Under the pieces are notes generated by a model. That model searched no databases, was not told where the DNA came from, and saw nothing but the letters and a program-made list of their open reading frames with translations. Position numbers and translations under genes: made by a program. Source: an uncultured bacterium (GTDB taxonomy: Bacteria; Patescibacteriota; Patescibacteriia; 2-12-FULL-60-25). Taken from it: 26,046 bases of DNA. Shown piece by piece: positions 2,443 through 26,046 of the stretch (position 1 is the first letter of the stretch; each line of letters starts with the position of its first letter). The DNA lies in NCBI GenBank assembly GCA_965368095.1, contig CBDULO010000001.1:1-26046 (forward strand), given 5' to 3'.

Positions 2443-4305
2443 ATGAAGAAAACACTGATTTCAGTTCTTGTAACCGCCTTTGCCATGACCCCCTTCTTGG
2501 GATTCACGCAAACGGCGAATGCCGGCGCTCCGCTCGCGGAAAACTCCGCATTTCGAACCGTTTCGAATTCAGCCGTCTACTGGCATGCGAATGGCGTGCG
2601 TTACCCATTCCCAAATGCAGAAACATATTTCACCTGGTTCGATTCATTTAATACTGTTCGAGTCGTGCACGACTCCTATCTCCAAGAGTATCCTCTCGCC
2701 GGTGAAAATATCACCTACCGCCCGGGAGCAAAACTTGTGAAAAGCACAAGCGGCGACAAAATTTATGCCGTATCTCGGCATGGCATTTTGCGACATGTCG
2801 TATCAGCCTCGGTCGCATCCCAATTATACGGATATGACTGGAATACCAAGGTACATGACATTCCCGATGCATTCTTCGGAAATTACACCATCGGATCGCC
2901 GATCTATTCGGCTTCAGATTACAATGCGAGCAATGAATATCATGGCGTAACCTTCCCGCATGAATCACTCCGTAATTCGTATTCAGCAAATACCAACTAC
3001 TTCAATAATTACTACTATCCAAATACGAACTATTACGGAACAACCGGAAGCCTCACCTTCAATACCAGCCGAACAAATATCAATTCAGGACAAGATGTCA
3101 CGCTTACGACCTATTATAATGGAAACCTTCCATCGAATGGACGTATCGAGATCAAAAATATCCGAAATAGCGCGACACTTAAAACCTGTTATAGCAATTC
3201 CTGCTCTGTAACCGTTCGTCCGGAACGAAATATCGAAGGAACATCCGTTCAATATATCGCGACCGTAAAAAATTCGAATGGTTCATTCATTACGAATAAG
3301 TACAGCCCGACGATTTATATTGATTCAAATACGAATAATCCCGCAAATGGTGACACCACGCTTTCGATTACAAATCGCTATAGCGCAAATGGAAATGAAA
3401 CCATCACCTTCGCCGCATTCGTAAATCGATCGGGATATACGAATTCAAATACGACGCTTCGTGTCTACGACGCATCGAATGGATCTCTCGTTCACACCTG
3501 CACGCAAAATACTTACTGTAGTTTTTCAAGAACATTCTCAAATGCTCTAGGAAAAACCTGGTATGTCCGCGCCACCAATGCAAACGGTGACAGCATCGAT
3601 TCAAATTATTTGACCTTCAATACAAGTGGGAATGGAACATCCGTAAATAACGGAACACTTTCGCTCACTGCCGATCGAACAAATATTTCGAATGGACAGG
3701 CCGTATATCTTTCCGCCAATTATCAGTATGGCGGCACAAGCATCAATCGTATTGAAATCAAAGAAGTACGAAACGGAAATACGGTAAAAACCTGTTACAA
3801 TACCAGCTGTTCCGCCACCGTATATCCGTATCAGAATGGATATACATCAACCCAATATTACGCGATTGCCTATAATTACGCAGGCACGCAAATCGATACT
3901 GAATATAGCCCAACGATTTACTTCAATGGGACAACGTATAATCCACCCACCTACAATCCCCCTACCTATTACCCGCCGGCAACGTATTATGGGACAGGTA
4001 ATGTAAACGATCTTCGTATCGACATGAGCGATACTCTGATCCATAGCGGGGATCTCGTAAAACTCACGGTGAATGCTCACAATACCGGCAACTGGAATTA
4101 TTCCGGAAATCGTATCGAGATCATCGATACGCGCACCGGAAATATCGTAAGAACATGCAGTGACCAAAGCTGGTGTGTTGCCGATGTCCGCGTCTTCCGT
4201 AATGGCGGCGAAGCAACCGTGCGATATGAAGCAAGATTCTACGACCGAAACGGAACGTATAGCATGAATGAAATCGGAACCCCGATTTACTTCATTACGA
4301 ACTAA
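2443..4305 (+). CDS. secreted/surface protein with a CPR-type N-terminal domain and four Cys-pair beta-rich (Ig-like) repeats (620 aa)
   Basis: Signal peptide MKKTLISVLVTAFAM. N-terminal SAVY..RYPFPN..TYFTW..TYRPG..KLVK..KIYAV..LYG.DW..DIPDAFF.NY domain typical of Parcubacteria surface proteins. Repeats carry KTC-x(4-5)-C. Confidence 0.8.
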   Translation: MKKTLISVLVTAFAMTPFLGFTQTANAGAPLAENSAFRTVSNSAVYWHANGVRYPFPNAETYFTWFDSFNTVRVVHDSYLQEYPLAGENITYRPGAKLVKSTSGDKIYAVSRHGILRHVVSASVASQLYGYDWNTKVHDIPDAFFGNYTIGSPIYSASDYNASNEYHGVTFPHESLRNSYSANTNYFNNYYYPNTNYYGTTGSLTFNTSRTNINSGQDVTLTTYYNGNLPSNGRIEIKNIRNSATLKTCYSNSCSVTVRPERNIEGTSVQYIATVKNSNGSFITNKYSPTIYIDSNTNNPANGDTTLSITNRYSANGNETITFAAFVNRSGYTNSNTTLRVYDASNGSLVHTCTQNTYCSFSRTFSNALGKTWYVRATNANGDSIDSNYLTFNTSGNGTSVNNGTLSLTADRTNISNGQAVYLSANYQYGGTSINRIEIKEVRNGNTVKTCYNTSCSATVYPYQNGYTSTQYYAIAYNYAGTQIDTEYSPTIYFNGTTYNPPTYNPPTYYPPATYYGTGNVNDLRIDMSDTLIHSGDLVKLTVNAHNTGNWNYSGNRIEIIDTRTGNIVRTCSDQSWCVADVRVFRNGGEATVRYEARFYDRNGTYSMNEIGTPIYFITN

Positions 4306-14474: not shown

Positions 14475-14738
14475 TTACGGATATATCTGATTTCCATCAT
14501 CATCGTATAAAATGATCGCTTGTGTTGGGCACGATTGAGCCGCCAGCAAAATTGTTTCATCATCAGCTCCTTTTTCATCGATAATCACCGCTTTATTTTC
14601 TTCATCAAGCTGAAAAACCGCCGGCGCAACCGTCACACAAGGCGCCGCCCCAATGCAAAGATCTCGATCCACTTCCACTTTTCCAATTTTCAGCGGCTTC
14701 GGCTCCTGCTTTCCTTCATCTTTTTTTACATCAGTCAT
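14475..14738 (-). CDS. single-cluster ferredoxin, probably [3Fe-4S] (87 aa)
   Basis: VDRDLCIGAAPCVTVAPAVF...AAQSCPTQAI; the second Cys of CxxCxxC is replaced by Ala. ATGA overlap with the upstream gene. Confidence 0.9.
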   Translation of the reverse strand: MTDVKKDEGKQEPKPLKIGKVEVDRDLCIGAAPCVTVAPAVFQLDEENKAVIIDEKGADDETILLAAQSCPTQAIILYDDDGNQIYP

Positions 14739-14983
14739 AGCGAGGCTTGGATAAATCGAATATCTTTTATCCCAGGCGCCTTCTCTCGCAAAACTTCTTC
14801 GATACCGGAAGTATAGTTCTCTGTGCAAGCACAGCCTCCGCAAAATCCGGTGAGTTCAATCGTACAAGAAATATCATCTGCTTCCGTAATGCGAATAGAT
14901 CGACCGGCGGATACGAGCATCGGCTGGATATCTTCCAGCGCCTTTTCCAAAATCACTTTTATTTCCATATGCGTCTCGTGCAT
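14735..14983 (-). CDS. stand-alone NifU C-terminal (Nfu) domain protein (82 aa)
   Basis: LEDIQPML...IELTGFCGGC...GIEEVLREKAP. TAATG and ATGA overlaps with its neighbours. Confidence 0.8.
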   Translation of the reverse strand: MHETHMEIKVILEKALEDIQPMLVSAGRSIRITEADDISCTIELTGFCGGCACTENYTSGIEEVLREKAPGIKDIRFIQASL

Positions 14984-25878: not shown

Positions 25879-25948
25879 ACGCAAAGAATAATAACGAATC
25901 AACACGCCCCTGACAATGGGGCCATGCGAAAAATCAATTCTAAAATTT

Positions 25949-25975
25949 AAAACAAAATACCGGCGCTAGCCGGCA
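25949..25975 (-). terminator. intrinsic terminator downstream of the tRNA 3' end
   Basis: Minus strand TGCCGGC-TAGC-GCCGGTA-TTTTGTTTT. Confidence 0.7.
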
Positions 25976-25983
25976 CTCTGTCT

Positions 25984-26003
25984 TGGCGGAGGGAGTGGGA
26001 TTC
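25984..26003 (-). tRNA. 3' part of a tRNA, probably tRNA-Ser, interrupted in the T-loop (5' part outside the window)
   Basis: Minus strand GAAT-CCCAC-TCCCTCC-G-CCA corresponds to positions 57-76 with G73 and the complement of a G1-G2-A3 acceptor stem. The bases 5' of it are GGAGGAG rather than GTGGGTTC. Confidence 0.7.
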
Positions 26004-26046
26004 CTCCTCCCCCAATCCTCGCATCCGCAAGCGATCCCCGCTCGGA

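Follow-up and report, generated by a model that had tools for sequence, protein, structure and literature searches.

The perfect 3' fragment of a serine tRNA gene found at the end of contig C1 of this patescibacterial genome probably marks where a member of a family of small non-coding elements, located at the 3' flanks of tRNA genes, has its 3' end. We consider it reasonably likely that these are previously undescribed insertion elements with a structured RNA, which target tRNA genes by pairing with the T-arm and duplicate the tRNA 3' end. The elements share a common architecture and a covarying fold, they are associated with tRNA genes among which they show a target preference, they are distributed patchily and in multiple copies, and recent copies are bounded by DNA duplications that start at tRNA position 57.

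The contig end and its sister copy

The window analysed here is the entire 26,046-nt contig C1 (positions 1-26046), and the sequence therefore stops at 26046. It belongs to a metagenome-assembled genome (MAG) of 870 kb in 163 contigs, designated G000, that is 91% complete. The features at the end of the window are:

25984..26003, minus strand: tail of the element, a copy of tRNA-Ser G57-A76 (direct reading)
26004..26046, minus strand: last 43 nt of a type-A core, cut by the contig end (alignment to other copies)
25946..25982, minus strand: terminator 2, an intrinsic-type hairpin and U-run (fold energy)

Read directly on the minus strand, 26003..25984 is GAATCCCACTCCCTCCGCCA, a perfect G57-A76 segment of a class-II, serine-type tRNA that comprises half of the T-loop, the 3' strands of the T-stem and acceptor stem, G73 and an encoded CCA. 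The match of this 20-mer to a tRNA 3' end is far beyond chance. It is followed by a 16-bp hairpin (25982..25951; -21.4 kcal/mol) which none of 200 shuffled sequences equalled and which is absent from the list produced by a simple terminator scanner; a hairpin and T-run also follow the tail in all four full type-A copies. Direct reading and a fold z score of -6.8 thus confirm the tRNA 3' segment, its encoded CCA and the terminator, all of which had been noticed in an earlier examination of the DNA (the sequence-only reading). Neither ARAGORN nor Rfam detected a tRNA anywhere in the window. A tmRNA, a tRNA-Sec and a tRNA-like fold of the terminal 63 nt were also considered and found no model support from either source. 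Taken alone, the 63-nt piece folds no better than shuffled sequences (z -0.3).

The 43 nt preceding the tail had been described as unrelated sequence lacking the 5' strand of the T-stem. No such strand occurs within 26004-26046, but the sequence is far from unrelated, being the 3' part of a conserved repeat that recurs, with 92% identity, on contig C115. It carries the distal hairpin of one arm of the core, arm B, and a conserved G-rich run ending GGAGGAG; it differs from the C115 copy at a single position and aligns in the same columns with copies on contigs C29, C59 and C4, to which it is 71-82% identical. The columns of the family model that match 26004..26046 form covarying helices.

The start of C115 corresponds to the last 120 nt of C1, at the 92% identity given above, and C115 then continues through the element. 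On the tRNA strand, the order is tRNA-Ser(CGA), a terminator hairpin, about 130 nt of conserved sequence, the 20-mer and a second terminator. The tRNA-Ser(CGA) is intact according to ARAGORN, scores 61.5 bits with Rfam and lies about 160 nt upstream of the 20-mer tail. The tails of the two copies are identical and match the 3' end of this tRNA at 19 of 20 positions. Between C1 and C115 there is 1 difference over 63 positions of the element, as against 9 over the 57 positions of the flank that follows, so that the element is better conserved than the flank. The two contigs represent either strain variants of one locus that were split by the assembler or two sister loci. Judging from C115, the missing part of the element, together with an intact tRNA-Ser, almost certainly lies beyond the window.

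The sequence-only reading had inferred an interrupted tRNA and offered, as one explanation, an intervening sequence in the T-loop. We regard a tRNA-Ser gene whose T-loop holds an intron or a giant insertion, a split tRNA, or an assembly artefact at the contig end as extremely improbable. The break does fall exactly at 56/57 and, as that reading had proposed to check, the matching serine isoacceptor is otherwise missing: no tRNA in the assembly matches the window 20-mer exactly, tRNA-Ser(CGA) differs by 1 nt, and tRNA-Ser(GGA) is absent among the 39 tRNAs that ARAGORN found in this 91% complete genome. However, C1 simply ends inside a repeat element, and C115 and every other full locus carry a complete, normally scoring tRNA upstream. 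No 5' half ending GTGGGTTC, as expected for an intron, abuts the element in the full sister copies, where the 5' end of the element is a terminator and/or an antisense leader and not the 5' part of a tRNA. Moreover, a local chimera is ruled out, since dozens of independent assemblies show the same junction.

The other explanation offered, an att-like junction of an element extending beyond the window, holds in two respects: the fragment represents the distal unit of a direct repeat whose start lies in the T-loop, and the element does extend beyond the end of the contig. It fails in its details, in that the element is small (about 100-180 nt) and non-coding, the intact tRNA lies about 160 nt and not kilobases away, and there is no integrase between the repeats.

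Some further observations concern the surroundings. A promoter-like site at 25888-25916 on the minus strand (TTGTCA, 17 nt, TATTAT; 10/12) lies between terminator 2 and the ATG (25878) of a response-regulator-like ORF, and the downstream genes therefore appear to be insulated from the tRNA/element transcript. The next ORF, of 559 aa, has, to judge by its sequence, the look of a PilB/GspE-type secretion ATPase. Exact-protein look-ups for the two genes neighbouring the fragment returned no record, and a metagenome scan with the tail-plus-flank junction gave no matches. Elsewhere in the genome, odd tRNA calls that lack CCA, a 95-nt tRNA-Arg(CCG) on C14 and a tRNA-Phe on C30, may represent insertions or miscalls.

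Layout and distribution of the element family

A same-strand copy of the last 20 nt of the tRNA occurs 110-200 nt downstream of 15 of the 39 tRNA genes of G000. These were located by scanning for second copies of each tRNA's last 20 nt, with at most two mismatches, and by BLAST; a search with orphan leader motifs added two type-C copies with poorer tails. The T-loop break that the earlier reading had proposed to look for in other tRNAs is present as tails matching the tRNAs' own 3' ends at these 15 loci, but the tRNAs themselves are intact.

The elements are about 100-180 nt long, with 100-200 nt and no ORF between the repeats. All copies share one order, in which the tRNA is usually followed by a terminator and often by UUGGN, after which come 8-12 variable nucleotides, a leader, a two-arm core, the tail and a terminator. 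The leader consensus, GGGAWUCGAA, is the reverse complement of positions 54-63 of the neighbouring tRNA (T-loop and 3' strand of the T-stem), while the UUGGN that often precedes it complements NCCA(A). The tail repeats the element's own tRNA from C56/G57 through A76. The core occurs as several sequence types (A-D) with a single two-arm architecture, and type B carries the invariant loop GAGUCGGAGCGAG. In G000 the types are arranged as follows:

Type A: at Ser-CGA, Leu-TAA, Ala-GGC and Lys-CTT, a truncated one at Lys-TTT, and the window copy
Type B: at Asp, Gln-CTG, Met, Glu-TTC, Gly-TCC, Trp, Arg-TCG and Asn
Type C and a single type D: also present in this genome
Tandem units at Ser-GCT, type D then type B: contig C113, about 1479-1830
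Tandem units at Arg-TCG, type B then type C: contig C56, about 3780-4125

In both tandem arrays, the second unit ends in a tail that either has diverged from the tRNA 3' end or reproduces it in truncated form.

The distribution of the family was examined with two covariance models. The first (R1), built from four copies, was searched in 60 related genomes and detected the family in nine of them. The second (R2), built from 17 diverse copies, was searched in 151 genomes sampled across the class and detected the family in 31, which belong to more than 25 families and carry 1-9 copies each. Some carrier genomes are closed or nearly so, and a motif scan of species genomes gave matches in MAGs of Patescibacteria and Candidatus Uhrbacteria. 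The tRNA-plus-tail layout was found at 20 of 21 (R1) and 22 of 26 (R2) loci of other genomes, and at two more by eye; a tRNA on the same strand lies upstream, its end 0-65 nt away, and its own 3' segment forms the end of the element. Host tRNAs span 16 amino-acid identities. At one locus (G003:C2, about 14600-14790) the tail matches the 3' end of a Glu-type tRNA, but no tRNA can be recognised upstream, where the terminator is preceded only by a sequence ending CTACCA; this may be a rearranged or orphaned copy.

Occupancy varies, from about 40% of the tRNAs in G000 to 1 of 11 unselected tRNAs in four relatives, and a given copy is closer to the other copies of its own genome than to those at the corresponding tRNA in other genomes. 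In G001, which belongs to the same genus, no element follows the orthologous tRNA-Leu(TAA) and tRNA-Ala(GGC), and the flanks at these empty sites are rearranged or too diverged to define an insert. No locus was found with both empty and occupied alleles and conserved flanks, and the extent of the inserted unit is consequently deduced from the repeats.

That the fragment could be a scar, the attR of a degraded island or prophage once integrated in the T-loop of tRNA-Ser, is in our view very unlikely. A direct repeat from the T-loop to the 3' end is the classical signature of T-loop-targeting tyrosine integrases, and G000 encodes three tyrosine recombinases; because of their presence in this genome, these enzymes are uninformative in the search for a mobilising activity considered below. 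Against a scar, the short stretch of about 100-180 nt between the repeats has no coding capacity, and RNA-type covariation, including G-U pairs, is unexpected of att arms. Perfect repeats of 60-85 nt include the terminator. Furthermore, one core family occurs at tRNAs of 16 identities, each with its own matching repeat, which excludes a fixed attP.

No Rfam family matches any of the core types, only the flanking tRNAs scoring, and our literature and Rfam searches yielded no description of such an element. Scans of viral contigs with type-A and type-B motifs gave no matches. Weak Rfam matches to the Proteobacterial sRNA sX4 at three loci (L002 186-332, minus strand; L014 745-897; L049 1285-1436), with 26-40 bits against a gathering threshold of 70, are driven by tRNA-Ser. 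In the one sX4 alignment viewed, the consensus consists of a tRNA-Ser-like sequence and then a stretch that pairs with the tRNA 3' strand, and this layout suggests that a 'tRNA plus antisense trailer' may exist outside Patescibacteria.

Fold, leader pairing and duplication from position 57

Compensatory changes were already visible when four copies were folded with RNAalifold. For the first set of 27 matches, 90.6% of the cells in the predicted helices were paired, compared with 33-49% when the partners were slid, and 38 of 41 pairs showed compensatory changes. For 27 matches at loci outside model building, the corresponding values were 90.4% and 35 of 39 pairs, with slid controls at or below 50%. 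None of 500 shuffles reached the observed structure measures in either set. The alignments were fitted to the model, which favours structure, and the slid controls derive from the same alignments. These results point to strong selection on an RNA structure. The fold is assigned to the tRNA-sense strand because of its G-U pairs and the orientation of the terminator.

In the model, a three-way junction is closed by a helix between the leader and the first 7 nt of the tail (tRNA positions 57-63). This closing helix is 98% paired and covaries at position 59 (UA 16, AU 8, CG 2). An exact reverse complement of tRNA positions 54-63 forms the leader of most copies, and the leader follows variants of the tRNA, including A57 with U, position 59, and U63 with A. 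It carries GGA at both tRNAs with a UCC T-loop and GAA in all 31 cleanly located leaders that lie opposite UUC. Since positions 54-56 lie outside the tail, the leader tracks the tRNA and not only the tail. Host tRNAs are also enriched in CCC at positions 61-63 (13 of 15, as against 7 of 22 other tRNAs; Fisher p = 0.002). Both the tracking by the leader and the CCC enrichment fit recognition of the T-arm by base pairing.

Most repeats end at CCA or a few nucleotides past it, with lengths of 17-21 nt, ranging up to 85 nt. Copies that appear young carry perfect or near-perfect repeats of 43-85 nt which begin at position 57 and extend across the terminator:

G151: 60-nt repeat of positions 57-76 and the whole terminator, around a type-A leader and core
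G065 and G044: repeats of about 85 nt
G042: 43-nt repeat that also includes the leader

The left edge of the duplication is fixed at 55/56 or 56/57, and the right edge would correspond to the insertion point. Six tRNA genes that lack CCA have tails reproducing the genomic sequence that follows the discriminator, and not CCA; at three CCA-less genes the tail nevertheless carries CCA, and two cases show the reverse. The CCA pattern is thus mixed and mostly favours a DNA copy; the three CCA tails at CCA-less genes are unpredicted by purely DNA-level copying. Taken as a whole, the repeats indicate that the duplication is made in DNA and in place.

Several simple mechanisms were considered and set aside. 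Copying of the tail from mature tRNA fits poorly with the CCA comparison, given its mostly DNA-like pattern. If the leader were an inverted copy, made in situ, of the entire tRNA 3' end, it should match over more than the approximately 10 nt that are seen even in young copies. Pure template-switching during replication, with a donor leader, leaves the GGA leaders at UCC T-loops unexplained, and a fixed 20-bp staggered cut does not accommodate repeats that vary from 17 to 85 nt.

Old copies have a different appearance, their tails being identical to the tRNA at 20 of 20 positions while both terminators have diverged beyond recognition. This implies selection on the tail, or gene conversion, and suggests a host function rather than pure selfishness. 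Accounts in which the element serves the host have to be weighed, in particular one in which leader, core and tail are processed from the tRNA transcript as a trailer RNA that acts as a mimic, decoy, sponge or processing signal and is kept by selection, the multi-copy state reflecting need and not mobility. We consider this somewhat unlikely, while noting that it overlaps with the explanation that we prefer, a mobile origin and a present function being compatible. It is favoured by the strong selection on structure, with invariant loops such as GAGUCGGAGCGAG in type B, by the identity of tails to tRNAs whose terminators diverge, and by a leader that tracks T-loop positions outside the tail. 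In G044, moreover, there is no terminator between the tRNA and the element, so that the two must be co-transcribed. On the other hand, occupancy is patchy, with an element at about 40% of the tRNAs in G000, at about 10% in close relatives, and with none detected in the majority of the genomes of the class; several unrelated core types occur in one genome and in tandem arrays; copies cluster by genome; the preference for a CCC T-stem resembles target choice; and no candidate protein partner was found.

Mobilisation and comparison with known systems

Candidate mobilising enzymes were sought among the related genomes, and TnpB, reverse transcriptase, Y1, IS110, Cas1 and Piwi proteins do not track with the carriers. 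No TnpB-type domain (PF07282) was found in G000 or in any other carrier among 61 genomes, with only the non-carrier G049 scoring above the cut-off. Reverse transcriptase (RVT_1), the enzyme expected of a target-primed or tRNA-primed retroelement, is absent from carriers G000, G003 (complete), G026, G041, G042, G044 and G142 (closed) and present in carriers G013, G065, G070 and G151. Y1 transposases occur in 4 of 10 carriers and 25 of 51 other genomes, and are thus uncorrelated with the element, and IS110-type DEDD recombinases (PF01548) occur in 3 of 61 genomes without any link to carriers. Cas1 (PF01867), for which the control worked, and Piwi were each absent from the five carriers searched. 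An IS91 profile gave no match, with its control silent too. The complete carrier G003 lacks TnpB, reverse transcriptase, Y1, IS110, Cas1 and Piwi. A search for an autonomous form, using orphan leader motifs, found none and was too unspecific.

Two side observations arose from these searches. A reverse transcriptase ORF and an element copy share a contig in G151 (C44 7483-8082, 6 kb away) and in G013 (C1 286905-287522, 16 kb away); the copy on G151:C44 is the youngest-looking, with its perfect 60-nt repeats, but it is not adjacent to the ORF and the pattern is absent from other carriers. Y1 proteins of IS200/IS605 type, or RAYT-like, were seen in 29 of 61 related genomes, many as ORFs of 180-260 aa, with TnpB almost absent.

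A further suggestion is that the element encodes the guide RNA of an RNA-guided nuclease, transposase or repressor (a TnpB omega-RNA, a homing guide of a CRISPR-associated transposon or an Argonaute guide), in which the core would be a protein-binding scaffold and the 20-nt tail would guide the complex to the tRNA gene beside a GTTC-type motif. This seems to us distinctly improbable. The layout is suggestive, with a scaffold of about 100-130 nt followed by a 20-21-nt 3' segment identical to the DNA immediately after GGTTC, as in IS200/IS605 omega-RNAs, and the tail is conserved in the manner of a guide. However, TnpB-type domains are absent from all carriers searched and pass only in the non-carrier G049, Cas1 and Piwi are lacking in five carriers, no core matches HEARO or another guide scaffold in Rfam, and the leader pairs with the initial 7 nt of the supposed guide. 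Moreover, the target and its adjacent motif are intact beside every copy, with the consequence that a nuclease would cut its own locus.

Under the preferred explanation, that of insertion elements targeted to tRNA genes, the family would spread by insertion, with the leader base-pairing to the T-arm to find a tRNA gene. The tRNA would survive insertion intact, since the stretch between position 57 and the insertion point would be duplicated and flank the inserted leader and core on either side. Transcription of the element probably accompanies that of the tRNA or follows directly on it. A more specific version is tentative and, in our judgement, rather unlikely. It envisages nucleic-acid-guided insertion, in which a structured RNA or DNA form of about 100 nt, carrying a 10-nt anti-T-arm guide, would home to the 3' side of the tRNA and regenerate the copy of its 3' end; its movement would depend on a small protein or host enzyme not yet recognised, or on RNA catalysis whereby the 3' end of the core is joined to G57 of a tRNA transcript. 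If this guided insertion occurs, the encoded tails would also be a source of defined 20-mers resembling tRF-3 fragments.

Should the general explanation be correct, up to about 40% of the tRNA genes of one genome would be followed by a conserved folded RNA in which part of the tRNA is represented in antisense as well as in sense form. This would be relevant to tRNA biology in the ultra-small Patescibacteria, organisms with minimal RNA-processing machinery. It would also add to the known mobile elements a site-specific type, either transposase-less or dependent on an unrecognised enzyme, with its choice of target seemingly set by 10 nt of pairing. Retargeting would be directly testable because the leader covaries with natural variants of the T-loop. 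In genome annotation, such tails have the appearance of broken tRNAs or of att sites, and assemblies break at them, as in C1.

Functional RNAs derived from tRNA 3' trailers are known, including the 3'ETS of leuZ in Escherichia coli and tRF-3 fragments. The element resembles them in that it would give an RNA from the 3' flank of a tRNA, with a tail equivalent to a T-loop-to-CCA fragment of about 20 nt. It differs in that this fragment is encoded a second time in the DNA, within a conserved fold.

The element is also similar to MITEs and REPINs, in being short, non-coding, multi-copy, hairpin-forming and intergenic and in showing bursts in one genome and tandem arrays; the MITE-like traits of presence or absence between close relatives and of target duplication were also seen. 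Unlike MITEs and REPINs, it is located strictly at tRNA 3' ends, its flanks derive from the target and its repeats are 20-85 nt in length as opposed to 2-10 bp. No terminal inverted repeats matching an autonomous transposon were found, the only inverted repeat being that between leader and tail, and we know of no cognate transposase for the element.

Two much larger systems likewise insert at the tRNA 3' end or immediately beyond it. Casposons encode Cas1 and duplicate about 15 bp of the tRNA 3' end, while type V-K CRISPR-associated transposons extend over many kb, encode Cas12k and Tns proteins and carry a guide that matches the tRNA. The present element differs from both, which are many kb in size and encode Cas1 or Cas12k/Tns, and Cas1 was absent in the five carriers tested; casposon-type terminal inverted repeats were not seen in it by eye. 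A preprint (10.1101/2021.02.06.429022) reportedly describes type V-K elements that home to tRNA genes.

Among RNA-guided systems, the TnpB omega-RNA has a comparable layout. The element likewise has a structured scaffold of about 100-150 nt and then, at its 3' end, about 20 nt identical to the DNA beside a motif, here GTTC at positions 53-56. The differences are that carriers lack TnpB, that Y1 is uncorrelated with the element, that the motif and target are uninterrupted upstream and that the start of the would-be guide is paired to the leader. In IS200/IS605 elements, the omega-RNA is a structured scaffold with a 3' guide identical to the DNA beside a short motif. The bridge (seek) RNAs of IS110/IS1111 elements are alike in having segments that match both strands of the target, the leader here being antisense to positions 54-63 and the tail sense to 57-76; the differences are that the recombinase occurs in only 3 of 61 genomes, unrelated to the carriers, that the two segments overlap and pair with each other, and that the target duplication is long.

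Finally, tyrosine-integrase islands and prophages reportedly integrate in the T-loop of tRNA genes (Williams 2002). The present element has in common with such islands a direct repeat from the T-loop to the tRNA 3' end, an intact tRNA and a displaced copy at the far junction. It differs in being about 150 nt in size and non-coding, without integrase or kb-scale cargo, and in occurring at many tRNA species with locus-specific repeats, which can reach 43-85 nt and take in the terminator, and a covarying RNA fold. The T-loop junction at 56/57, familiar from integrase crossover, is used by something much smaller.
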